From a virus (Duplodnaviria > Heunggongvirae > Uroviricota > Caudoviricetes): a stretch of 39,711 bases of DNA. Location of the stretch: IMG/VR virus record IMGVR_UViG_2563366967_000006; one strand, written 5' to 3'. The notes under the pieces are model-generated. The model saw nothing but the letters and a program-made list of their open reading frames with translations, did no database searches and was not told the DNA's origin. Position 1 is the stretch's first letter; every line of letters starts with the position of its first letter. The position numbers and the translations under genes are program-made. This document shows, in pieces, positions 1,749 through 15,453 of this stretch.

Positions 1749-2061
1749 TCTTGACCTTGTGTTGTGCGGATTGATATTCAGTGCTGATATTCACCTTTAT
1801 AGCGAACACCTTTACCGGTTTATCGCCAAAGTGCGGATGTGTGATTGTCTTCACTTCATATCCGTCATACGGAACATCAATTCTGCGACTGGAATCGTCG
1901 CGCTTCGGATATCCCTTTGTGATAATCAGGCGGTCATATTCCCGGAACATAATTCGCTTATTCCAGTAGTCATTACACAAGCGATACTCTTCCGTTTTCT
2001 CTCCGCGAATCATGGCATCGAAGTATTCACTTTTAACAGCAAGTTGCAGGTTAGCCATCAC
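1732..2061 (-). CDS. Hypothetical prophage protein (109 aa)
   Basis: ORF co-oriented with neighbours; short overlap with the adjacent ORF suggests operon packing. Confidence 0.45.
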   Translation of the reverse strand: MMANLQLAVKSEYFDAMIRGEKTEEYRLCNDYWNKRIMFREYDRLIITKGYPKRDDSSRRIDVPYDGYEVKTITHPHFGDKPVKVFAIKVNISTEYQSAQHKVKNVQSD

Positions 2062-2279
2062 TTAATCCCCCTTTGTTTGCGGATAAGCTCCAGATCTTGC
2101 TGGCAACTGGCGCAAGTACGACAACCCTGAACGGCCAGGCGTCTTCGTTCATCTATCGGATCGCCACACTCACAACAATGAGTGGCAGATACAGCCAGGT
2201 AGTTCAGGCGGCGCATTTTTATTGCTGTGTTGCGCTGTAATTCTTCTATTTCTGATGCTGAATCAATGATGTCTGCCAT
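2058..2279 (-). CDS. TraR/DksA-type C4 zinc-finger protein
   Basis: 73-aa ORF with CxxC...CxxC (HCCECGD...CRTCASC), as in phage TraR/DksA-family zinc fingers. Confidence 0.55.
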   Translation of the reverse strand: MADIIDSASEIEELQRNTAIKMRRLNYLAVSATHCCECGDPIDERRRLAVQGCRTCASCQQDLELIRKQRGIK

Positions 2280-2325
2280 CTTTCATTAATCCCTGAACTG
2301 TTGGTTAATACGCTTGAGGGCGAAT

Positions 2326-2356
2326 GCGAATAATAAAAAAGGAGCCTGTAGCTCCA
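2326..2356 (-). terminator. Putative intrinsic terminator (minus strand)
   Basis: Plus strand reads aataataaaaaaggagcctgtagctcc; on the minus strand this is a GGAGC/GCTCC hairpin followed by a T-run, just downstream of the 2378-2659 ORF. Confidence 0.4.
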
Positions 2357-2377
2357 TGATGATTTTGTTTTTCATGT

Positions 2378-2659
2378 TCACCGTTCCTTAAAGACGCCGT
2401 TTAACATGCCGATCGCCAGGCTTAAATGAGTCGGTGTGAATCCCATCAGCGTTACCGTTTCGCGGTGCTTCTTCAGTACGCTACGGCAAATGTCATCGAC
2501 GTTTTTATCCGGAAACTGCTGTCTGGCTTTTTTGATTTCATAATTAGCCTGACGGGCAATACTGCGAAGGGCGTTTTCTTGCTGAGGTGTCATTGAACAA
2601 GTCCCATGTCGGCAAGCATAAGCACACAGAATATGAAGCCCGCTGCCAGAAAAATGCAT
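2378..2659 (-). CDS. Hypothetical prophage protein (start may be the internal Met near 2593)
   Basis: ORF in the leftward operon; the internal Met (MTPQQENALRS...) would give about 71 aa. Confidence 0.4.
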   Translation of the reverse strand: MHFSGSGLHILCAYACRHGTCSMTPQQENALRSIARQANYEIKKARQQFPDKNVDDICRSVLKKHRETVTLMGFTPTHLSLAIGMLNGVFKER

Positions 2660-3012
2660 TCAGTGGTTGTCATACCTGGTCTCTCTCATCTGCTTCTGCT
2701 TTCGCCACCATCATTTCCAGCTTTTGTGAAAGGGATGTGGCTAACGTATGAAATTCTTAGTCTGTTTCTACTGGTATTGGCACAAACCTGACTCCAATTT
2801 GAGCGAGGCTATGTGCCATCTCGATACTCGTTCTTAACTCAACGGGAGATGCTTTGTGCATACAGCCCCTCGTTTATTATTTATCTCCTAAGCCAGCCGC
2901 TGGGCTTTCAGTGGATTTTGGATAACAGAAAGGCCGGGAAATACCCAGTCTCGCTTTGTAACGGAGTAGATGAAAGTGATCGCGCCTACCCGGATATTAT
3001 CGTGAGGGTGCG

Positions 3013-3693
3013 TCATCGCCATTGCTCCCCAAATACAAAACCAATTTCAGCCAGTGCCTCGTCCATTTTTTCGATGAACTCCGGCACCATCTCGTCAAAA
3101 CTCGCCATGTACTTTTCATCCCGCTCAACCACGACATAATGCAGTCCTTCACGCTTCATACGCGGGTCATAGTTGGCAAAGTACCAGGCATCTTTTCGTG
3201 TTACCCACATGCTGTACTGCACCTGGGCCATGTAAGCCGACTTTATGGCCTCGAAACCACCGAGCCGGAACTTCATGAAATCCCGGGAGGTAAACGGGCA
3301 TTTCAGCTCAAGGCCATTGCCGTCACTGCATAAACCATCGGGAGAGCAGGCGGTGCGCATACTTTCGTCGCGATAGATGATCGGGGATTCAGTAACATTC
3401 ACGCCGGAAGTGAATTCAAACAGGGTTCTGGCGTCGTTCTCGTACTGTTTTCCCCAGGCCAGCGCCTTAGCATTAACTTCCGGAGCCACACCGGTGCAAA
3501 CCTCAGCCAGCAGGGTGTGGAAGTAGGACATTTTCATGTCAGGCCACTTCTTTCCGGAGCGGGGTTTTGCTATCACGTTGTGAACTTCTGAAGCGGTGAT
3601 GACGCCGAGCCGTAATTTGTGCCACGCATCATCCCCCTGTTCGACAGCTCTCACATCGATCCCGGTACGCTGCAGGATAATGTCCGGTGTCAT
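3013..3693 (-). CDS. exo: Lambda exonuclease (Red-alpha)
   Basis: 226-aa translation ([30 protein letters not shown]...) is near-identical to lambda Exo as I recall it. Confidence 0.95.
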
Positions 3694-4475
3694 GCTGCCA
3701 CCTTCTGCTCTGCGGCTTTCTGTTTCAGGAATCCAAGAGCTTTTACTGCTTCGGCCTGTGTCAGTTCTGACGATGCACGAATGTCGCGGCGAAATATCTG
3801 GGAACAGAGTGGCAATAAGTCGTCATCCCATGTTTTATCCAGGGCGATCAGCAGAGTGTTAATCTCCTGCATGGTTTCATCGTTAACCGGAGTGATGTCG
3901 CGTTCCGGCTGGCGTTCTGCAGTGTATGCAGTATTTTCGACAATGCGCTCGGCTTCATCCTTGTCATAGATACCAGCAAATCCGAAGGCCAGACGGGCAC
4001 ACTGAATCATGGCTTTATGCCGTAACATTCGTTTGGGATGCGACTGCCACGGCCCCGTGATTTCTCTGCCTTCGCGAGTTTTGAATGGTTCGCGGCGGCA
4101 TTCATCCATCCATTCGGTAACGCAGATCGGATGATTACGGTCCTTGCGGTAAATCCGGCATGTACAGGATTCATTGTCCTGTTCAAAGTCCATGCCGTCA
4201 AACTGCTGGTTTTCGTTGATGATGCGGGACCAGCCATCAACGCCCACCACCGGAACGATGCCGTTCTGCTTATCAGGGAAGGCGTAAATTTCTTTCGTCC
4301 ACGGATTAAGGCCGTATTGGTTGGCGACGATCAGCAATGCGATGAACTGCGCATCGCTGGCATCGCCTTTAAATGCTGTCTGGCGAAGAGTGGTGATCAG
4401 TTCCTGTGGGTCGACAGAATCCATGCCGACACGTTCAGCCAGCTTCCCTGCCAGCGTTGCGAGTGCTGTACTCAT
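3690..4475 (-). CDS. bet: Red-beta single-strand annealing protein
   Basis: 261-aa translation ([59 protein letters not shown]...) matches lambda Bet; overlaps exo by 4 nt. Confidence 0.95.
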
Positions 4476-4852: not shown

Positions 4853-5263
4853 TTAGTGATTCAGGCCGTTACCGCGTCCGTCGAGAAAAACTTCCACGAG
4901 CAAATCACGGGTATAAGTGCGCTCGATGCCGCGATGCAGATAAAGCCGTCCGCGTAAATTAGCTGATGCAGTCCAGGTACCATCTTTGTGTTTGACCAGC
5001 ATTCCTGGCATGACCGCACCTCGATTAACGGTCTGCGTTCCGTAATGTTGATGAACCATAAAAACTCCTGCCCGTAAGCTGGGCTGCTGAACATATAGAG
5101 ACTTCTGCGCGTATTCAGGCGGTGGATGGCCGCCGGTTGTCATAACTAAGCCGCCTCGTTGAAGCGACTGAGGTATGAGGTGTTGAGTTGATTTCAGCTG
5201 GTCACACCGACGTTCACACGTCCGTTTCACCCCTCGCACTCCCCGGAGCCTGCTGAAATTCAA
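4853..5263 (-). CDS. Hypothetical early-leftward protein; TTG start at 5263 or ATG start at about 5143 (96 aa)
   Basis: Only ORF between gam and the OL/PL-like operator cluster, where lambda carries kil-cIII-ral-N. The 5263 start is TTG; an in-frame ATG at about 5143 has a GAGG upstream. Arg-rich N-terminal extension. Confidence 0.35.
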   Translation of the reverse strand: MNFSRLRGVRGVKRTCERRCDQLKSTQHLIPQSLQRGGLVMTTGGHPPPEYAQKSLYVQQPSLRAGVFMVHQHYGTQTVNRGAVMPGMLVKHKDGTWTASANLRGRLYLHRGIERTYTRDLLVEVFLDGRGNGLNH

Positions 5264-5490
5264 GCTGCGGATCTAAGCGGTCATCGCAACGGTGAATCAG
5301 GTGGTTGCCGTATCGTTGTGTTGTTGCGATGAACTCATTTAAAACTATAGTTGTTTTACCGTCAACAACAAAAGTTGTTTCATTGGTTGTTTTAGATATA
5401 ACTGGTTGTATTTAGGATGGATTTATTTTGTGACTTGCATCGCATAGCGATAACTGAAGCGGGGGGTATGGTGGTTTTTTGAACGGTGTG
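5264..5490. promoter_or_regulatory. OL/PL-like operator-promoter cluster
   Basis: Several GGTTGT/ACAACC half-sites and inverted repeats (gttgtt...aacaac, aacaacaaaagttgtt, tggttgtt, ctggttgta), the same half-site as in the cI-cro intergenic region. Confidence 0.45.
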
Positions 5491-5499
5491 TGATGAGGG

Positions 5500-5528
5500 G
5501 AGGCAAAAGAAAACCCGGCACGACGGCC
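5500..5528 (-). terminator. Putative intrinsic terminator downstream of the membrane-protein gene
   Basis: Plus strand reads gcaaaagaaaacccggcacgacggccggg; on the minus strand this is a CCCGGC/GCCGGG hairpin followed by TTTTCTTTTG, directly after the stop at 5540. Confidence 0.5.
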
Positions 5529-5539
5529 GGGGAGGGGGG

Positions 5540-6046
5540 TCATTTTAATCTATCAAGGAGTGACTCTCTTTCCTTCTTCTCTGATTCTCTTCGGTTTAAT
5601 AACGCTTTAAACTCTTGAAGCTCAACCATTATTTTATGAACGAATACACTGGTATAGAGAGAAATAAAGAGTAATCCACCTGAAATTTTTAAGACCCTGA
5701 AGAGTAGGGCTTGATCATTTGTGCTTGCTATTAACCCCAAGATTACAAACAAAGTTGAAAATACATAGAAAGCTAATAATAAAACCAATTTCAGTCTCTT
5801 GGATTTGACTATTGGCACTAATCGCCTAACCTCACTAGGGGTTAAAGACGAGTGGTCATTGGCCTCATTTGCCTTAAAAATGGCTTGTATACAATATGAT
5901 AATGGCAATTGCATGAGTCCAACCACAGCCCACGGAGCAGTTAGGACAACACCCGGTGTAATATAGCCCAATGCTGACTTGAACAAAAAGTAACCAGCAA
6001 AATAGAAGACCAACATACCAATAAGGTGGATGATGTTCGATTTCAT
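5540..6046 (-). CDS. Unknown multi-pass membrane protein (168 aa, about 4 hydrophobic segments, charged C-terminal tail), second gene of the cassette in the rexB position
   Basis: Four long hydrophobic stretches followed by a charged tail (RRESEKKERESLLDRLK). Strong RBS (aaaaggaggg) 21 nt after the upstream gene's stop. AT-rich. Confidence 0.8.
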   Translation of the reverse strand: MKSNIIHLIGMLVFYFAGYFLFKSALGYITPGVVLTAPWAVVGLMQLPLSYCIQAIFKANEANDHSSLTPSEVRRLVPIVKSKRLKLVLLLAFYVFSTLFVILGLIASTNDQALLFRVLKISGGLLFISLYTSVFVHKIMVELQEFKALLNRRESEKKERESLLDRLK

Positions 6047-6067
6047 TATCGCCCTCCTTTTGGTAGG

Positions 6068-7090
6068 TTATTTTGCAACCAATTCTCCGGCATCAAGTTT
6101 TGAGAACAGCCACTTATGCATTTTTAAGAATAAATCATTTTCATCAATAATGCCATTGTTATATTCAACGCTAATTTTTCCGGATAATTTTATCTCTTTT
6201 CCCGTTATTTCCCCACCGCCTTGAAGTTTGATGCTAATATCATCCTCATCTAGATGTCGTAGTGAGGTAGCAATACTGTCTATAACAGCTTGACCGCTAT
6301 CATTTGTTTTTCTGAAGTATGTAATCTCGAGGCTTACTTGTAAATTGGCCTCATCTAATGAATCTTTAATGTTTATATCATTTGCCCAGTTATCGCCAAA
6401 AAATGCTTTTAGTAGCGCACCTCCTTTCCCTATTGGGCGGTATTTTATTGTCTTCACCGAACCATTTGAAAAGGAGGGTGTTTGGTTCTCTGAATTTTTA
6501 ACTTCTGAAGTAATGGGTAATCCACCAATTTTTATGCTCTTGGCTGGTGCTTTCTCCATTTTTTTCATCGTTTCTTCGGATGGCTTATCTTGAAGCATTA
6601 ACACAGATTCTTTTTCATCTGTGAATGTATTAATTAGCCAATTCAAATGCGCCTCAAGCTCCCTTGCTCGAAGCGATGTGGATTGAACGATCATGACATG
6701 GTTGTTTAGTACACCAAAATATAAAATTGAATCTACAAACTCTCTTTTTTTGTCACTACGTTTATCTCCATCAATAATTATATCATTAGACGTGATGGAG
6801 TTAATGTCATAAAATTTAACATTATCACTAAGCTCTAATAGAGACTGGCTTTTGTCTTTTTCAAATAAAACCAGTTGCCCAAAAAGTATAGTTTTGTATG
6901 TGTCGCTTTTATTTAAGAAACGATACCCCGAATTTTCATCTGAAGGTGTTATTTTTTCTTGTCTACTAAGTACTTTTTCTGCAACGCCGCCCTCACCTAT
7001 AATACTAAGTAGTATGTTTTGTAATGATGATTTGCTGTGTGGGATTACTGCTTTTTTATAATGAACGACTTTTTGTCTGTTATCTTTCAT
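6068..7090 (-). CDS. Unknown soluble protein (340 aa), first gene of the cassette in the rexA position
   Basis: ATG at 7090; immediately downstream of cI on the same strand. Lys/Asn/Ser-rich and AT-rich; no P-loop or nuclease motif seen by eye. Confidence 0.8.
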   Translation of the reverse strand: MKDNRQKVVHYKKAVIPHSKSSLQNILLSIIGEGGVAEKVLSRQEKITPSDENSGYRFLNKSDTYKTILFGQLVLFEKDKSQSLLELSDNVKFYDINSITSNDIIIDGDKRSDKKREFVDSILYFGVLNNHVMIVQSTSLRARELEAHLNWLINTFTDEKESVLMLQDKPSEETMKKMEKAPAKSIKIGGLPITSEVKNSENQTPSFSNGSVKTIKYRPIGKGGALLKAFFGDNWANDINIKDSLDEANLQVSLEITYFRKTNDSGQAVIDSIATSLRHLDEDDISIKLQGGGEITGKEIKLSGKISVEYNNGIIDENDLFLKMHKWLFSKLDAGELVAK

Positions 7091-7147
7091 TGCTATAGTC
7101 CAACTAGTATTGAATAAATAAACACAGTAAAGACATAAAAATTTCTT

Positions 7148-7177
7148 ATAGCTACCGATAACGTAATCGGTAGCTAT
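7148..7177. repeat. Perfect 12-bp inverted repeat with 6-nt spacer (atagctaccgat-aacgta-atcggtagctat)
   Basis: Read directly from the sequence between the cI stop (7213) and the 340-aa gene start (7090); on the minus strand a short T-run (AAGAAATTTTTATG) follows. Confidence 0.55.
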
Positions 7178-7212
7178 TACAAATCAACCAAAGGTAATTC
7201 TTTACATACTAC

Positions 7213-7902
7213 CTACCCATGCTTCCTGTAGGTCTGCGGCATGCTCCCAATAACTTTCCCGAAGATAAACACCCGGTTCATCTCGTCTTTCTCAATTGGG
7301 TCCCACGGCGAGTAGCTCTTGTTATCAGAGATAACCAGTAGCTTATCCTTCATCATTTGCAGGCGCTTTACATGGGCTGTGTCGTCGTACAGAAACGCAT
7401 AGATACCATCACCGTCGAAAGATTTAACTGTGATATCAACGAACAGCAGATCACCTGGTTCGATCGTTCCTGACATGCTGTCACCACGCACGTTAATGAT
7501 GCGGATATTTTCCGCCTTCCTACCATCGAACATGTGACGAGCATCGTCAAACGAGTACTCAACCGAGCGTAGAACTTCTACAAACTCACGGTTGATGACT
7601 CCCGGCCCAGCACTGACTTCTATATCAAGAACGTCAATCTTAAAGTATTTGGAATGGCTGACAGTTGATAGTATTGGTTGCACTGTACTGTCTGACATAT
7701 TTCCAACGCCAGAAGATAACCATTCTGCGCGCACACCCAAAGCGTTCGCGATCTCCACGATTTTAGTTGTTTGGTTAGCTTTCCCTGTTTCGATTTTCTG
7801 AATAGCAGCTTGGCTAACCCCGACCAAATCCCCAAGCGCCTTTTGTGTAAGGCCTCGCGCTAATCTGGCTTCTTTAAGTCTTTCTGAGAGTGTTGTTTTC
7901 AT
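7213..7902 (-). CDS. cI: CI-type prophage repressor (HTH plus S24/LexA-like peptidase)
   Basis: N-terminal HTH (LTQKALGDLVGVSQAAIQKIETGK) and C-terminal peptidase-like domain with GDSM. The likely start is the internal ATG at 7902 (MKTTLSERL...); the ORF track extends to 7968. Not lambda cI. Confidence 0.85.
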   Translation of the reverse strand: MKTTLSERLKEARLARGLTQKALGDLVGVSQAAIQKIETGKANQTTKIVEIANALGVRAEWLSSGVGNMSDSTVQPILSTVSHSKYFKIDVLDIEVSAGPGVINREFVEVLRSVEYSFDDARHMFDGRKAENIRIINVRGDSMSGTIEPGDLLFVDITVKSFDGDGIYAFLYDDTAHVKRLQMMKDKLLVISDNKSYSPWDPIEKDEMNRVFIFGKVIGSMPQTYRKHG

Positions 7903-8006
7903 AGTCCAAATGTACAACCAAGGTTTTATTCCATCAAACGAAAATGGTTGTTGACTAAAAACAACCATAGTTTTAATCTTGATTCAAATTAACCACGGAG
8001 GTTGTT
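7903..8006. promoter_or_regulatory. OR/PRM/PR-like divergent operator-promoter region
   Basis: Inverted repeat ATGGTTGTT-7 nt-AACAACCAT at 7944-7968 overlapping a TTGACT -35-like hexamer, plus further ACAACCA/GGTTGTT half-sites near 7914-7925 and 7990-8005; RBS ggagg before the cro-like start. Confidence 0.55.
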
Positions 8007-8932: not shown

Positions 8933-9862
8933 ATGGCAAACACTGCTGAGATATTCAATTTTCCAGTGCCGGATGTGGCACAAAAGGAGCCGCGCGTGGC
9001 AGATCTCGATGATGGTTATACGCGCATTGCAAATGAGTTGCTGGAAGCTGTGATGCTGGCCGGATTAACACAGCACCAGCTTCTGGTCTTCCTGGCTGTC
9101 ATGCGCAAAACATATGGCTTTAATAAAAAACTGGATTGGGTGAGCAACGAGCAACTTTCCGAGTTGACCGGGATATTGCCGCACAAGTGTTCTGCTGCAA
9201 AAAGTGTTCTGGTAAAGCGTGGGATTTTTATTCAGAGCGGGCGGAATATCGGCATTAATAATGTGGTCAGTGAATGGTCAACATTACCCGAATCAGGTAA
9301 GAAAAATAAAGTTTACCTGAAAGAGGTAAATTTACCTGAATCAGGTAAGAAAAGTTTACCCAAATCAGGTAAAGACGTTTACCCGAATCAGGTAAACACA
9401 AAAGACAAACTAACAAAAGACAATATAAAACCTTTTTCGTCCGAGAATTCTGGCGAATCCTCTGACCAGCCAGAAAACGATCTTCCTGTGGTGAAACCGG
9501 ATGCTGCAATTCAGAGCGGCAGCAAGTGGGGGACAGCAGAAGACCTGACCGCCGCAGAGTGGATGTTTGACATGGTGAAGACCATCGCGCCATCAGCCAG
9601 AAAACCGAATTTTGCAGGGTGGGCCAACGACATCCGCCTGATGCGTGAGCGTGACGGGCGTAACCATCGCGACATGTGCGTTCTGTTCCGCTGGGCCTGC
9701 CAGGACAACTTCTGGTCCGGTAACGTGCTGAGTCCAGCAAAACTCCGCGACAAGTGGACTCAGCTCGAAATTAACCGCAACAAGCAACAGGCTGGTGTGA
9801 CTGCCAGCAAACCAAAACTCGACCTGACAAACACTGACTGGATTTACGGGGTGGAGCTATGA
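8933..9862 (+). CDS. O: Replication initiator protein O
   Basis: N-terminus resembles lambda O (VADLDDGYTRIANELLEA..., RKTYGFNK...); the gene contains the iteron array. Start taken at ATG 8933 with RBS gggagg; the track ORF begins at 8843. Confidence 0.85.
   Translation: MANTAEIFNFPVPDVAQKEPRVADLDDGYTRIANELLEAVMLAGLTQHQLLVFLAVMRKTYGFNKKLDWVSNEQLSELTGILPHKCSAAKSVLVKRGIFIQSGRNIGINNVVSEWSTLPESGKKNKVYLKEVNLPESGKKSLPKSGKDVYPNQVNTKDKLTKDNIKPFSSENSGESSDQPENDLPVVKPDAAIQSGSKWGTAEDLTAAEWMFDMVKTIAPSARKPNFAGWANDIRLMRERDGRNHRDMCVLFRWACQDNFWSGNVLSPAKLRDKWTQLEINRNKQQAGVTASKPKLDLTNTDWIYGVEL
9284..9397 (+). repeat. Origin iterons (five ~19-bp direct repeats, TTTACCYGAATCAGGTAAR) followed by an A-rich tract
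   Basis: Read directly: ttacccgaatcaggtaag, tttacctgaaagaggtaaa, tttacctgaatcaggtaag, tttacccaaatcaggtaaa, tttacccgaatcaggtaaa, then cacaaaagacaaactaacaaaagacaatataaaa. Confidence 0.8.
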
Positions 9863-10572
9863 AAAATATTGCCGCGCAGATGATTAACTTTGACCGTGAG
9901 CAGATGCGTCGAATCGCCAACAACATGCCGGAACAATACGACGAAAAGCCGCAGGTGCAGCAGGTGGCGCAGATCATCAACGGTGTGTTCAGCCAGCTGC
10001 TTGCGACATTTCCGGCAAGCCTCGCGAACCGCGACCAGAACGAGCTGAACGAAATCCGCCGTCAGTGGGTTATGGCTTTCCGTGAAAATGGAATTACCAC
10101 TATGGAGCAGGTTAACGCCGGAATGCGCGTGGCCCGCCGACAGGAGCGACCATTCCTGCCGTCGCCCGGCCAGTTCGTAGCGTGGTGTAAGCAGAGTGGC
10201 GGGGCGTTAGGTATCACTGTTGACCAAGTCATAACCGAATACTGGGATTGGCGTAATCGTTCCTTCGAATTCACTTCCAGCGAGCATTTCCCGTGGTCAC
10301 AGCCTGTCATGTACCACATCTGCGTCGAACTGCGCCACCGCAGCACAGAGCGCCAGTTAACGCATGGTGAGCTGGCGCGTGAAGCCGGCGATCTGCTGGA
10401 CATGTGGGAGAGGCGCGTCACCGAGGGCAAACCAGTACCGCCTGTGCGCCGGGCGATTGCAGCACCGGCTGCCGAGCATGGCCCGACGCCAATCCAGCTG
10501 CTTCAGGCGAAGTACAACCGCAACAAGTCGAACGGGATGGTGCGAAGTGGTAAAGAAGATAATAAAGAATAA
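9859..10572 (+). CDS. P: Replication protein P (DnaB helicase loader), mosaic
   Basis: N-terminal ~110 aa nearly identical to lambda P (MKNIAAQMINFDREQMRRIANNMPEQYDEKPQVQQVAQIINGVFSQLL...); the C-terminal half differs from lambda P as I recall it. Confidence 0.85.
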   Translation: MKNIAAQMINFDREQMRRIANNMPEQYDEKPQVQQVAQIINGVFSQLLATFPASLANRDQNELNEIRRQWVMAFRENGITTMEQVNAGMRVARRQERPFLPSPGQFVAWCKQSGGALGITVDQVITEYWDWRNRSFEFTSSEHFPWSQPVMYHICVELRHRSTERQLTHGELAREAGDLLDMWERRVTEGKPVPPVRRAIAAPAAEHGPTPIQLLQAKYNRNKSNGMVRSGKEDNKE

Positions 10573-10650
10573 TATTTAGGGTTATAGGTCTTAGCCCATT
10601 TTAAATGGAAGGCAGACATGCAGCCATGCATACTTCGCATGGCAACATAA

Positions 10651-11079
10651 TTATTTAGACAAACTATCTAATTTTTGCGTCGCTTTTTGTGTTAGGTCGC
10701 TGTAACTGATAAACCCTACGTTAGCACCTACAATTAACACTAAGAACACTAAGCTGCATATGGATAGAGTGGCAGATTTATGCTTATGGAAAACAAAATA
10801 TGCTACTATTGCACTTAATATGAAGGAAATGAATAGAAATATAGATGTTGATGTTTTTAGATATTTTTCAGGAAATAATGGGTGAGCAATAATGTATACA
10901 AGATTAAGTAGTATATAAATTGCTACCGGAATGAAAATCATGCTCCAGTGTGTATCTTTTTTGGGAGGGATTGGCTGCAAATAATCAGACACCGTTTTTC
11001 CATCAGTTTCAAGAAGAATTACTAGATCTCTTACTTCACCACTGACTTGAGTGCCATCCTTAGTAGTAATGTTAATCAT
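10651..11079 (-). CDS. Unknown membrane protein (~142 aa, soluble N-terminal region plus about 3 hydrophobic segments)
   Basis: Start taken at the internal ATG 11079 (MINITTKDG...), which overlaps the upstream stop as ATGA, with a GGAGGG RBS. The track ORF extends to 11136. AT-rich. Confidence 0.6.
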   Translation of the reverse strand: MINITTKDGTQVSGEVRDLVILLETDGKTVSDYLQPIPPKKDTHWSMIFIPVAIYILLNLVYIIAHPLFPEKYLKTSTSIFLFISFILSAIVAYFVFHKHKSATLSICSLVFLVLIVGANVGFISYSDLTQKATQKLDSLSK

Positions 11080-11453
11080 TTTTTCCCTCCAAATACGATT
11101 CCCTCTACGTCTTTGGAAGCTTTTTGTGATGACCACTCCTCTGAATCAGGTGATTTAATTAAAAATATTGTATCTCCATCAAAAATCGTATTTGTTCCGT
11201 AAAAATTTACATTTGATAGATCACCACCAAAAACCCTCTGCCCACTCGAGGTAATTGCCTCACCTAATTTAGTAAAATTACCTGCAATAGATGATTTTCT
11301 TTTTCCACTTCTATTCAAAGTGGCTTTAATTACACCACCACCATCCTTAGAGTTAAATAATTGAATGTCCACTCCAGCAGTTGGTTGTATATATTTTGAA
11401 AGCTCTTTCTTGAACTTGTTAATATATTTATCTTTGTTTTCTTTGTTGGTCAT
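11076..11453 (-). CDS. Unknown small soluble protein (125 aa), first gene of the ren-position cassette
   Basis: ORF antisense to the early rightward operon; Gly/Ser/Lys-rich; no motif recognised. AT-rich. Confidence 0.6.
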   Translation of the reverse strand: MTNKENKDKYINKFKKELSKYIQPTAGVDIQLFNSKDGGGVIKATLNRSGKRKSSIAGNFTKLGEAITSSGQRVFGGDLSNVNFYGTNTIFDGDTIFLIKSPDSEEWSSQKASKDVEGIVFGGKK

Positions 11454-11720
11454 TGGTTAGATCCATAGTTCTGGCTGTGATTAGGTGAAAGTATACAAGG
11501 TTTTTAAAGCGAAGATCACTGTTTTGGCTTCAAGATAGTTTTGATTTATCGTAATCAATCCGCCATAATCCTCTCATCGGAGCCTGAACAACTCCGGTGA
11601 CTTCTGCGCATTTAAGGGGACTTAAATGCGACCACAATCTGAACTCATCACCTTGTCACAGATGCAGAAATGCACCTGCGATGTCTTGCATCCAGCGTTT
11701 GATCTCTGCGGAGGTGAAGC

Positions 11721-12176
11721 GTGAACCTCCCACAAGATGGCATCAAATTACATCGCGGTAACTTCACCGCTGTCGGTCAGCAGATCCAGACTTATCTGGA
11801 AGACGGCAAATGCTTTCGCATGGTGCTTAAACCGTGGCGCGAGAGACGCAGTCTTTCCCAGAATGCACTCAGCCACATGTGGTACAGCGAAATCAGTGAA
11901 TACCTCATCAGCAGGGGTAAAACGTTCGCCACTCCAGCTTGGGTAAAAGATGCTCTCAAACACACATATCTCGGTTATGAAACCAAAGACCTGGTTGATG
12001 TCGTAACCGGTGATATCACCACTATCCAGTCGTTACGCCATACCTCCGATCTTGATACCGGAGAGATGTATGTCTTCCTGTGTAAGGTTGAAGCCTGGGC
12101 GGTGAATATTGGCTGCCACCTGACTATTCCGCAGAGCTGCGAGTTCCAGCTGCTCCGCGACAAGCAAGAGGCGTAA
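11721..12176 (+). CDS. ybcN: NinB/YbcN-family protein
   Basis: 151-aa translation matches my recollection of DLP12 YbcN ([15 protein letters not shown]...[20 protein letters not shown]...). Confidence 0.75.
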
Positions 12177-13782: not shown

Positions 13783-14865
13783 TTAGAACTGATAAACCAG
13801 ACCTACAGCGACGATGTCGTCGGTATCAATACCAGCTGTTTTGGTAAACTTACTATCGTCAATTAAGTTGATTTTGTAATCAACAAAAGTGGACATGTTT
13901 TTATTAAAGTAGTAAGTAGCACCGACATCGACATACTTGACTAAGTCTCGGTCACCATGAACACCAAGGTCTTTACCTTTTGACTGAAGGTAAGCAACAG
14001 ATGGACGCAGACCGAAGTCAAACTGATATTGTGCTACTGCTTCAAAGTTTTGTGCTTTGTTTGCAATATGGTTATTACCAAAAACGGTCATATTCTGAGT
14101 TTCAGAATATGTGGTAGCCAGATAGATATTGTTCGCATCATATTTCAGGCCTGCAGCCCATACTTCCGCATTTTTGCCGGAGGCATTGAATTTGCTCTTA
14201 CCATAGGCGACCTGACCGTCAGTGCGATCTGATTTAGCATAGGTTGCACCCACGCCGAATCCTTCATACTCATAAGTAGTGGAGAAACCGAAACCATCAC
14301 CATTGGCTTCAGTTACGTCAGTGCGGTCATTTTTACCCTGATACTGAGCAGCAAAGTTCAGGCCATCGACCAGACCAAAGAAGTCGTTGTTACGATAAGT
14401 TGCAACACCAGTAGTGCGACCAGTCATGAACACATCTGTTTGGGTCCAGGTATCACCACCGAATTCTGGCAGAACGTCAGTCCACGCACCGATGTCGTAT
14501 GCTACACCGTAGTTACGGCCGTAATCGATTGAGCCGTAATCACCAAATTTCAGGCCTGCAAATGCAAGACGGGTTTTGTCTTTGGAAGAACCTTGAGATT
14601 CAGCACGGTTGCCTTTGAATTCATATTCCCACTGACCGAAACCAGTCAGTTGATCGTTGATTTGGGTTTCACCTTTGAAGCCAAGACGGGCATAAGTAGT
14701 ATCACCATCATCTGCATCATTAGAGGAGAAGTAGTGCTTGGCATTAACTTTCCCGTATAGATCCAGCTTGTTACTGTCTTTATTATAAATTTCAGCTGCC
14801 TGAGCAGACATCGCCATCAGTACTGATGCAGCTACAGCAGAAATTGCCACTGTTAATTTTTTCAT
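13783..14865 (-). CDS. nmpC: OmpC-family porin (NmpC-like moron)
   Basis: Signal peptide [23 protein letters not shown] then AEIYNKD...; C-terminal VGLVYQF beta-barrel signature. Start taken at internal ATG 14865; the track ORF runs to 14925. Confidence 0.85.
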
Positions 14866-15453
14866 TGTACGCCCTTTTTTTGAACTATTATTAAAAAATG
14901 ATGTCACTGCGCGATAAATATTCATCTAATCAATGTGATTATTTCAAGATGTAAGTTTTAGTTTCTCATTTAATTTGTGAAGTAGATCTCTATTTTTATC
15001 GGAACCTTTTCTATCTAATCCTATTCATGGCTCTTGTCTGAACAAAAATAAATCTATTAGCTAATTTATATTAATGGCACTTATTTATAAGTGCTCTATA
15101 ATTCTTTAGCTTAATTTAAACAAACTAAAAATAACATCGGAAATTATTAACTGGTTATTTGTTGAAGTTTTCTTATGCATTTGTGGTGGTGTTTTGAACA
15201 CTCGGTGGCATTCTCACAAATATCATTTAGTAGTTTACGTACGTAAAAAATTGGTTATGCTGTTAAGAGTGGTTACTTCGTCACACAGCTTAAACCCGCC
15301 GTCGAGCGGGTTTTTCCATTTTTTGAGTCTCGATATTAGCTGATAACCCAATACCTGAGTTATTCACTGACTCCGAATCTGTTACGTTTCTGCCTTTATT
15401 GCGATACGTAGTATCCCCTTAATTTACACCCGCTTTGTCTGCGAGGTGGGGTT

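Follow-up and report, generated by a model that had tools for sequence, protein, structure and literature searches.

The window analysed here, a stretch of 39,711 nucleotides from a lambda-like prophage of E. coli, carries between its replication gene P and its nin region an AT-rich cassette of two overlapping minus-strand genes, which we call A and B. The two form an obligatory, co-evolving pair that spans phyla and for which we detected no homology to any family described so far. We tentatively read the cassette as a module for abortive infection or exclusion that acts on the membrane, A sensing or regulating and B serving as the effector, and put the probability of this reading at roughly 45%.

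A two-gene cassette in the ren slot

Gene A (11076-11453, minus strand) encodes a soluble protein of 125 aa, and gene B (10651-11079, minus strand) encodes a protein of 142 aa with three transmembrane helices, the length being counted from the ATG common to its homologues (an upstream GTG would give 161 aa). The flanking genes, both on the plus strand and named from the annotation of identical RefSeq prophages, are the replication protein gene P (9859-10572) and the YbcN/NinB-like gene of the nin region (11721-12176). In those identical prophages the integration site adjoins icd. An earlier note made from the letters of this DNA had proposed two minus-strand reading frames between P and the nin region, in the position of ren in lambda, and both the frames and the slot are as it described them. 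Its claim of AT-richness is likewise borne out, with a GC content of 33.6% for 10651-11453, 18 points below the 51.5% of the remainder of the window; P stands at 56.7% and ybcN/ninB at 50.7%. The distance from the cassette to the repressor gene is about 2.7 kb. The rex position (5540-7090) is filled by another AT-rich pair.

The junction of the two genes (11076-11090, minus strand) holds a GGAGGG Shine-Dalgarno sequence at 11090-11085, the ATG of B at 11079-11077 and the TGA of A at 11078-11076. The ATGA overlap of stop and start that had been claimed can thus be read directly from the sequence, and most distant pairs have the same 4-nt overlap.

On the upstream side, the earlier note had treated all of 11454-11720 as a spacer, which holds only in part. 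A blastn comparison with the prophage of E. coli strain 118 places the boundary of the cassette lineage at 11537, and only about 11455-11536 goes with the cassette. The stretch from 11537 to 11720 is instead the leader of the nin region, includes a 33-aa ORF and is common to about 2,500 E. coli genomes. Within the cassette-lineage upstream region (11454-11536, minus strand) lies a candidate -10 element, TATACT (11495-11490), 37 nt ahead of the ATG of A and in register with a TATGAT in a Klebsiella-type variant of the cassette; a consensus scan of the cassette strand upstream of A found no full sigma-70 site and no convincing -35 element. In E. coli, H-NS commonly silences DNA of such high AT content, and the cassette, at 33% GC, may be silenced in the same way. 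The pair may be expressed in the lysogen, as the earlier note expected; what speaks for this is the candidate -10 element.

At the other end of the cassette, the region at 10579-10643 (minus strand) contains two hairpins whose predicted RNA fold has a free energy of -23.2 kcal/mol (z = -3.17 against shuffled sequences). One of them, GCCATGC-N7-GCATGGC (10643-10623), begins 8 nt past the stop codon of B and is kept in the 66-76% identical Klebsiella-type cassette, and the other (10597-10579) is followed by a U-rich tract. Judged by sequence and predicted folding, the two together form a putative terminator that would work in both directions, where the converging genes P and B meet. An Rfam scan of 10300-11900 returned no match.

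In a closely related prophage, that of E. coli strain 118, the slot is likewise flanked by P and ybcN and holds three small sense-strand genes instead of the cassette, another related prophage has a colicin-like gene with its immunity gene in the same slot, and the occupants of the slot in relatives comprise ren-like genes, a DndB-like gene and colicin-type cargo. The cassette itself is present in 46 of 5,426 complete E. coli genomes, while the adjoining nin leader is present in about 2,500. The lambdoid prophages that carry it are mosaic, with three different replication modules, and in every one examined the cassette sits in this slot and runs antisense to the early operon. The earlier description of a moron in a variable slot, oriented against the early operon, therefore agrees with the alternative cargo of strain 118, with the count of 46 genomes and with the GC difference of 18 points. 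In our reading, the cassette arrived by horizontal transfer as a unit of two genes that is complete in itself. A tblastn search with A against the isolated phages of INPHARED gave no match.

The products of A and B

The protein encoded by A has no hydrophobic segment (its maximum 19-residue Kyte-Doolittle mean is 0.43) and a pI of 9.5, within a family range of 5.1 to 9.7. AlphaFold produced a poor model (pLDDT 58.5) with the fold order alpha-beta-beta-alpha-beta-beta-alpha, an order on account of which a Roadblock/LC7-like fold was considered, and fold searches with this model retrieved only generic alpha/beta sandwiches. Because the model is poor and the searches are generic, a sensor role for A is without structural support. 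The best-conserved part of the protein is the beta3-beta4 hairpin, and its best-conserved motif is F-x-G-T-N...L-I-K at residues 84-100; the loop at residues 47-60 is hypervariable, the most variable stretch of the protein. No recognisable DNA-binding domain is present. A matched nothing in Pfam, NCBIfam or PADLOC, a meaningful Pfam match was found for none of the 71 members of its family, and profile searches of the PDB, which includes the solved structure of GhoS, with both a narrow and a wide A family found nothing.

B has hydrophobic segments at about residues 45-67, 77-98 and 104-127 on the Kyte-Doolittle scale, and its AlphaFold model consists of a small N-terminal beta-hairpin plus helix followed by three long helices. 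The claim that a soluble A is paired with a B of about three hydrophobic segments thus agrees with the hydropathy profiles of both proteins and, for B, also with the model. B is predicted to be an inner-membrane protein with its N-terminus inside, so that a conserved N-terminal mini-domain of about 30-35 residues would be cytoplasmic. The loop between TM2 and TM3 is basic (HKHK here, RFK in distant relatives), and conservation peaks at residues 11-30 and in TM3. Searches of Pfam and NCBIfam gave only sub-threshold matches to generic membrane families, none of the 17 family members had a meaningful Pfam match, and a PDB profile search with a wide B family found no relative.

The earlier note had called both proteins unrecognisable. 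This stands for Pfam, NCBIfam, PADLOC and the PDB, but both are already PHROG families, phrog_18061 for A and phrog_16940 for B, each listed with unknown function. Both are real genes under purifying selection, with dN/dS close to 0.09 (0.086 for A and 0.091 for B, calculated against the 66-76% identical Klebsiella-type pair). As far as alignments can tell, the conserved N-terminus of B and the conserved beta3-beta4 hairpin of A, together with the variable A loop, would suit a constant surface of contact between A and B combined with a changeable surface for recognition.

Distribution and co-evolution of the pair

A full HMMER search collected A-like proteins in 111 clusters, and A-B pairs range over Enterobacteriaceae, Bacteroidota, Nitrospira and Acidobacteria. 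An intact B-like gene of 125-145 aa follows the A-like gene in 22 of the 23 loci examined, usually with the 4-nt overlap, and the enterobacterial B aligns with the partner genes of distant A relatives at an hhalign probability of 97.7% (E 1.9e-12). Pairs were also found at further loci. The lone exception among the 23 is a prophage (locus L048) in which B is frameshifted and A intact; A alone is therefore tolerated. A further prophage (locus L065) had been a candidate for a second broken B and was ruled out, as the alignment shows an intact B that had merely not been called. The pairwise identities of A and B are strongly correlated (Mantel r = 0.886, a value reached in 0 of 5,000 permutations). 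The GC content of the module is lower than that of its flanks in 15 of 21 loci.

One relative (P0104) carries an HNH nuclease (PF01844, E 1.3e-12) joined to the A domain (residues 7-119), an arrangement known from just two metagenome contigs of about 1.7 kb. Such a fusion would follow naturally from a role of A as a domain for sensing or regulation, able to pair with alternative effectors.

Genomic contexts of distant relatives

Copies of the module lie on other phage contigs with integrase, lysozyme and holin genes, on a mobilisable plasmid-like contig with Rep, MobC and relaxase genes, and in an island with BrnA, Gp49/HTH and Ymh genes; the toxin-antitoxin genes found near module copies are BrnA, Gp49/HTH and Xre-MbcA/ParS. 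An identified defence gene is directly adjacent in just 3 of 15 distant loci. In a Bacteroides locus (L026) the module sits exactly between the mod and res genes of a Type III restriction-modification system and on the same strand, in a deltaproteobacterium (L018) it is immediately upstream of brxA-brxB, and in a Nitrospira genome the gene next to it matches the candidate defence family PDC-M14A. Ten further neighbours of distant loci had no match in PADLOC. A PADLOC scan of neighbours pooled across loci gave matches to PD-Lambda-3_B, PDC-S05, PDC-S09 and PDC-S22 that are not tied to single loci. Several distant loci have housekeeping neighbours, among them genes for a tRNA synthetase, EPSP synthase, a CLC channel and MFS transporters, and most module copies, including that of the window, have no restriction-modification genes adjoining. 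The evidence from defence contexts is anecdotal.

Proposed function and its alternatives

The earlier note had guessed at toxin/immunity, exclusion or abortive infection, and this guess fits the contexts above: prophages, a plasmid-like contig, islands rich in toxin-antitoxin genes, a place inside a Type III restriction-modification operon and one directly upstream of BREX genes. In the mechanism that we propose, A and B would be made from one coupled message and would act as a complex, with A, a cytoplasmic alpha/beta protein, as the sensing or regulatory subunit and B as the membrane effector. Detection of a superinfecting phage or another invading element, the presumed trigger, would release or activate B, which would then impair the inner membrane, through a leak of ions or a depolarisation, and so abort the infection. 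The general logic would be that of RexA/RexB or of Butters gp30/gp31, carried out by unrelated proteins. In favour of this reading we count the obligatory pairing, the homology of B across distant loci, the correlated identities, the purifying selection, the genomic contexts, the low GC content, the HNH fusion, the conservation pattern and the prophage that keeps A beside a broken B. Against it stand the lack of homology of either protein to a defence protein, the anecdotal nature of the contexts, the poor model of A, the small number of contigs with the fusion, the absence of A from the isolated phages of INPHARED, the incomplete promoter and the possible silencing by H-NS. A broader version, which we hold to be doubtful, is that the pair belongs to a widespread and as yet unnamed abortive-infection family in which a new sensor domain of about 120 aa, A, works with interchangeable effectors, mostly B and in at least one fusion an HNH nuclease. 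Prophages would carry this family as cargo, and Type III restriction-modification and BREX operons would hold it as a nested second line of protection.

The order of the genes, with A first and B coupled to it, is just as well explained by an antitoxin-toxin operon, a putative antidote gene followed by a coupled membrane-protein gene being the usual type II layout. On that account, B would be a toxin of small size acting in the membrane, A would counteract it as an antidote that is labile or works by titration, the main role of the two would be to stabilise the prophage, plasmid or island that bears them, and any phage resistance would be incidental. The tight co-evolution of A and B, the possible loss of B with A kept, and the presence of the pair near other toxin-antitoxin genes and on a plasmid-like contig that is small and mobilisable all speak for addiction. 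We nonetheless think it unlikely, since neither protein resembles any toxin-antitoxin family in Pfam, NCBIfam or PADLOC, autoregulation would call for a DNA-binding domain, of which A shows no recognisable trace, the A family ranges widely in pI, B has a strongly conserved cytoplasmic domain that simple Hok-, TisB- or GhoT-like toxins do not have, the HNH fusion makes little sense for an A that does no more than neutralise B, and a location inside restriction-modification and BREX operons suggests defence. Toxin-antitoxin and abortive-infection functions are compatible with each other. The housekeeping neighbours of many distant loci and the lack of a defence-family match for either protein would also suit a membrane module with no part in defence. 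Such a module might bring about lysogenic conversion, with effects on the physiology of the envelope, on tolerance of stress or on the handling of small molecules, or might regulate the neighbouring operon, in which case the link to mobile elements would reflect only horizontal spread. This we judge less probable again, given a prophage accessory slot that otherwise holds ren-like, DndB-like or colicin-type genes, the position of the module within a Type III operon and directly upstream of BREX genes, a GC content strongly atypical for most hosts, the relative fused to a nuclease, and the lack of any transporter-like or enzyme-like signature in A or B.

HK97 gp15, T4 Imm and P22 SieA block the entry of phage DNA without killing the cell, and B, with A as a cytoplasmic accessory, could act likewise in the inner membrane. 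As a small polytopic inner-membrane protein of a prophage moron antisense to the lytic operons, B suits such a role, as does the competition cargo (colicin-like gene and immunity gene) found in the same slot of a related prophage. Entry blockers are usually narrow, however, directed at one phage group, whereas the module reaches from Enterobacteriaceae to Bacteroidota, Nitrospira and Acidobacteria and also occurs on a plasmid-like contig and inside restriction-modification and BREX operons; moreover, the conserved parts of B are predicted to be cytoplasmic and not periplasmic, and we know of no Sie protein that needs a soluble cytoplasmic partner. Exclusion at the envelope of this kind therefore seems to us quite improbable.

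Should the cassette prove to be a defence system, as in our preferred reading of an abortive-infection or exclusion module, it would be a compact one of about 800 bp, made of two protein families without a Pfam entry or a solved structure, and its range would extend from E. coli to Bacteroidota, Nitrospira and Acidobacteria. Standard phages of E. coli would serve to test it in the host where it naturally occurs, and the ren slot of lambdoid prophages would become another hotspot of cargo or defence genes. Its nesting in Type III restriction-modification and BREX operons would, if the reading is true, help to explain in simple terms how defences in several layers are connected. Even if the pair serves addiction, the A domain and the cytoplasmic mini-domain of B are new, well-conserved families worth a structure.

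Comparison with known systems

The earlier note had said that its interpretation would be refuted if the proteins were clearly related to an accessory gene already known from replication or regulation, and no such relationship was found. Ren, the usual occupant of the slot, is a sense gene of the pR operon, whereas the cassette genes lie on the opposite strand, and comparison of the cassette with Ren gave an hhalign probability of 0.18%; Pfam and NCBIfam gave no match to a gene of this kind and no toxin or antitoxin domain in either protein. In PADLOC-DB v2.0.0 (2023), which includes the PD-T4, PD-T7, PD-Lambda and PDC candidates, no family was found at E <= 1 for A or B, and the distant B partners tested against PADLOC-DB v2 also had no match. 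A literature search for the RefSeq accessions WP_000182282 and WP_000608370 found no paper, and a keyword search of the literature on lambdoid defence hotspots found nothing describing the pair.

In architecture only, a soluble partner encoded just upstream of a short multi-helix membrane protein that would be the effector of killing or arrest recalls the Cap14/Cap15-type effectors of CBASS, PycTM of Pycsar and the type V pair GhoT/GhoS. Unlike CBASS and Pycsar, A and B contain no cyclase or nucleotide-binding domain and match no PADLOC effector model. GhoT is 57 aa long and has no cytoplasmic domain.

Second-line defences often nest inside first-line ones, as PrrC does in the EcoprrI type I restriction-modification system and as extra genes do in BREX loci. 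The module resembles these in its positions inside the Type III mod-res operon and upstream of brxA-brxB, and differs from PrrC in having no anticodon-nuclease or ABC-ATPase domain. A functional link between the module and the surrounding restriction-modification or BREX genes is a conjecture.

RexA and RexB of lambda interact physically and jointly block the growth of T4 rII in lysogens (PMC11077077). Like them, A and B are a prophage pair in which the gene for a soluble protein precedes that for a small polytopic inner-membrane protein, and both pairs are accessory and no part of core phage function. A has 125 aa and RexA 279 aa, B has three transmembrane helices and RexB four predicted ones, rexAB adjoins cI and has PRM as its promoter whereas the present pair lies between P and the nin region, and the A/B pair, unlike Rex, occurs across phyla and also outside phages. 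In sequence the two pairs are unrelated: the alignment of the A family (71 sequences) against RexA gave an hhalign probability of 0.04%, and that of the B family against RexB one of 0.25%.

The gp30/gp31 system of mycobacteriophage Butters, like that of Sbash, is a prophage-mediated defence against heterotypic phages in which the two products interact (PMC7542560; PMC6426596). The Butters proteins differ from A and B in their much larger size (403 aa and 187 aa), in their actinobacterial hosts and in their narrow known distribution, and comparison of the A and B families with them revealed no homology, the hhalign probabilities being 0.37% and 0.26%. What the two systems have in common is their layout, a two-component prophage system in which the gene for a cytoplasmic protein overlaps a downstream gene for a membrane protein, by 8 nt in Butters.

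Results

Two coupled genes between P and the nin region

The window is a lambdoid prophage, and the same DNA adjoins icd in complete E. coli genomes (F11, BH100, ECONIH2, M-17, and others), where the gene order is int-xis, exo-bet-gam, repressor and cro, a YdaT-like gene, O, P, the cassette, ybcN, ninE, ybcO, rusA, ylcG, quuD, an ompC-like porin gene, lysis genes, and terminase. The cassette lies between the end of P at 10572 and the start of ybcN, a NinB relative, at 11721, which is the position of ren in lambda; in the related prophage of E. coli strain 118, three small sense-strand genes are found in this slot instead. Gene A (11076-11453, minus strand) is an ORF encoding a hydrophilic protein of 125 aa with a pI of 9.5, and gene B (10651-11079, minus strand) encodes a 142 aa protein with three hydrophobic segments. 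The TGA of A and the ATG of B share bases as ATGA, a GGAGGG Shine-Dalgarno sequence is located 6 nt 5' of the start of B, and the GC content of the coding block is 33.6%, compared to 51.5% elsewhere in the window. An earlier note had described an AT-rich pair of minus-strand ORFs in the ren slot, overlapping as ATGA and encoding a soluble protein and a membrane protein of about three segments, and as the ORFs, overlap, hydrophobicity, and GC content were all read as described at these coordinates, that observation is confirmed. When the pair is compared to its Klebsiella-type version (76% and 66% protein identity), dN/dS values are 0.086 (A) and 0.091 (B), with dS near saturation; judged by their sequences, both are real genes.

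In the AlphaFold model of B (pLDDT 67.7), residues 1-33 form a beta-hairpin and a helix and three long helices come next; a structure search with this model retrieved only generic helical bundles. Structure searches gave no functional lead.

Other features of the prophage deserve mention. An OmpC/NmpC-like porin gene (13783-14925, minus strand) is placed as in DLP12, antisense and with the Q antiterminator on one side and the lysis genes on the other; further downstream, the identical F11 prophage carries genes for an iss/bor-type lipoprotein and a TonB-family protein. Another AT-rich minus-strand pair (5540-7090) comes immediately after the cI-like repressor (7213-7968); it encodes a 340 aa soluble protein (6068-7090) and a 168 aa multi-TM protein (5540-6046), resembles rexA/rexB in position and architecture, and had no match in PADLOC. 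In the otherwise near-identical F11 prophage, it is replaced by an ASCH-domain gene and a 353 aa gene. This pair is probably the first cassette that the earlier note presupposed in calling A-B the second.

Boundaries and signals of the cassette

By blastn, homology to the strain 118 prophage ends within P at 10187 and restarts at 11537, while nucleotide homology to the Klebsiella-type version is limited to 10636-11454, i.e., both genes and the first part of a hairpin. Both versions conserve this hairpin (GCCATGC-N7-GCATGGC, 10643-10623). A second one (10597-10579) is followed by a U-rich tract, and folding of the hairpin region is better than that of shuffled controls (z = -3.17). Upstream of A, the sole promoter-like feature conserved in register with the Klebsiella type is a candidate -10 hexamer, TATACT (11495-11490), aligned with TATGAT, with no -35 evident. 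Independent transcription of the cassette from this putative promoter is plausible.

The plus-strand leader of the nin region (11537-11720), which is about 180 bp long, lies upstream of ybcN/ninB, and contains a 33 aa ORF (about 11626-11724), is outside the cassette. It is common to approximately 2,500 complete E. coli genomes and to phages 82, HK639, HK225, and phi80, contains a sigma-70-like site (TTGATT-17-CATAAT, 11541-11569), and is annotated in the phage 82 record with a regulator-binding site, -35/-10 signals, and ribosome-binding sites.

A rare cassette with distant relatives

The cassette is present in 46 of 5,426 complete E. coli genomes, always at 99% identity or more, and in 18 prophage-type contigs of IMG/VR; the isolated phages of INPHARED lack it. 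Neither A nor B had a meaningful match in Pfam, NCBIfam, or PADLOC, and in PHROGs each falls in a family of unknown function. Word-indexed searches returned only enterobacterial relatives of at least 63% identity, and a full HMMER profile search (E <= 1e-3) retrieved 111 clusters of A-like proteins, nearly all 120-135 aa long. These share the patterns Y-I-N-N-F-R-R in helix 1, G-A-I-x-E-F in the first hairpin, Q-x-A-F-G-G-N-L, F-x-G-T-N...R-I-I-L-I-K in the second hairpin, and E-W-S-D-x-A-A-x-x-D-V in the last helix. No Pfam domain was found in any of 71 members, a search of PDB with the A-family profile found nothing, and the B family has no relative in Pfam or PDB.

Distant A relatives (23-35% identity) come from genome and metagenome loci of Deltaproteobacteria, Neptuniibacter, Acidiferrales, Nitrospira, Salinisphaerales, Myxococcales, Bacteroides, Flavobacteriia, and others. 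In 22 of the 23 loci examined, the gene after A is intact, 125-145 aa long, and usually overlaps A by 4 nt, and further pairs were found beyond these. The exception is an Enterobacter-type prophage (L048, 6318-6802; IMG/VR 2619619144_000006) with a frameshifted B. There, B is split into ORFs of 92 and 55 aa next to an intact A that is 92% identical to that of the window, which may reflect real decay or an assembly error.

The partner proteins have in common the conserved N-terminal motif M-K-x-G-x-x-E-G-T-x-E-E-[VI]-x-x-L-F-x-x-x-G-L-x-L-x-x-Y, followed by three TM helices, of which TM2 and TM3 are joined by a basic loop, R-F-K. Aligned by hhalign, enterobacterial B matches the distant partner group with a probability of 97.7% (E 1.9e-12, 112 columns), and the pairwise identities of A and B are strongly correlated (Mantel r 0.886, with 0 of 5,000 permutations as high). 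Conservation peaks in the second hairpin of A (residues 81-100) and in residues 11-30 and TM3 of B, and is lowest in the A loop 47-60. The positive-inside rule applied to the B alignment predicts an N-in orientation, which would make the conserved N-terminal domain and the basic loop cytoplasmic, on the same side as A.

Genomic contexts of the module

In lambdoid prophages of Klebsiella, Enterobacter, and E. coli, the cassette always lies antisense between replication-accessory genes and the nin region, and the adjacent replication modules vary (O/P, DnaB-type, and DnaC/IstB-type). One such prophage (L064, 3665-8971; GCA_030132385.1) has three kinds of cargo in its P-to-nin slot. One is an A-B pair of 67% identity; another is a colicin-like gene in antisense orientation (377 aa, weak PF01024) alongside a colicin-immunity-like gene (174 aa); the third, on the strand of the early operon, pairs a DndB-like gene with an HNH gene. 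This slot seems to be a site where competition or defence cargo accumulates.

Elsewhere, one copy of the module is on a phage contig that also encodes an integrase, a lysozyme, and a holin. Outside the enterobacteria, the closest relative of the pair (A 42% identical) is on a small metagenome contig (L057, 3-3080; 3300053491) beside a replication-initiator-like (Rep) gene, MobC, and a relaxase, which suggests that its carrier is a mobilisable plasmid. There, the rep-like ORF upstream of A overlaps its start by 11 nt. In the uncultured Bacteroides sp. UMGS1534 (L026, 1969-7922), the mod (1969-3969) and res (4875-7922) genes of a Type III R-M system have the pair exactly between them on the same strand, and in a deltaproteobacterial MAG (L018, 2008-4150), it is directly upstream of and co-oriented with BREX brxA (2883-3539) and brxB (3536-4150). 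In Nitrospira, it adjoins a candidate-defence gene, PDC-M14A-like. Other copies are found in an island that also harbours a transposase and BrnA, Gp49/HTH, and Ymh genes, and downstream of smc-zipA-ligA in the vicinity of an Xre-MbcA/ParS antitoxin gene. Pooled scans of 75 neighbouring ORFs also gave PD-Lambda-3_B, PDC-S05, PDC-S09, and PDC-S22 matches along with many housekeeping families, and ten further neighbours had no match in PADLOC. Module GC content is clearly below that of the flanks in 15 of 21 loci.

Two A-family proteins are longer. P0104 (447 aa; L055, 246-1589, on a metagenome contig of only 1.7 kb) has an A-family domain (7-119) fused to an HNH endonuclease motif (191-231), with about 200 further residues without assigned function. 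The other (L058, 258-3051) totals 243 aa with a 110 aa N-terminal extension; it is preceded by a 545 aa gene of unknown function and followed by a 132 aa B-like gene, with a Phage_rep_O gene 3 kb downstream.

Discussion

The evidence shows A-B to be an obligatory, co-evolving, and horizontally mobile pair whose carriers include prophages and a plasmid-like contig and which also sits within or beside R-M and BREX loci. The finding is larger than the reader of the earlier note thought: a phylum-spanning, uncharacterised two-gene module and not an orphan pair of local extent. As for the toxin/immunity, exclusion, or abortive-infection architecture proposed there, it is partly supported, the pair standing as described and its function being what we infer.

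A is predicted to be cytoplasmic and B a small membrane protein with conserved surfaces facing the cytoplasm. The best-supported reading is that they would form a membrane-acting abortive-infection or exclusion module. Its main rival, an addiction-type TA module, is compatible with that reading. A Sie function that blocks entry is also possible, as is a role in the membrane that has nothing to do with defence.

In an abortive-infection or exclusion module, A would act as the sensor or regulator and B as the effector. A-B belongs to neither the RexA/RexB nor the Butters gp30/gp31 system, with hhalign probabilities all below 0.4%. It is in logic that the proposed division between sensor and effector matches both RexA/RexB (PMC11077077) and Butters gp30/gp31 (PMC7542560).
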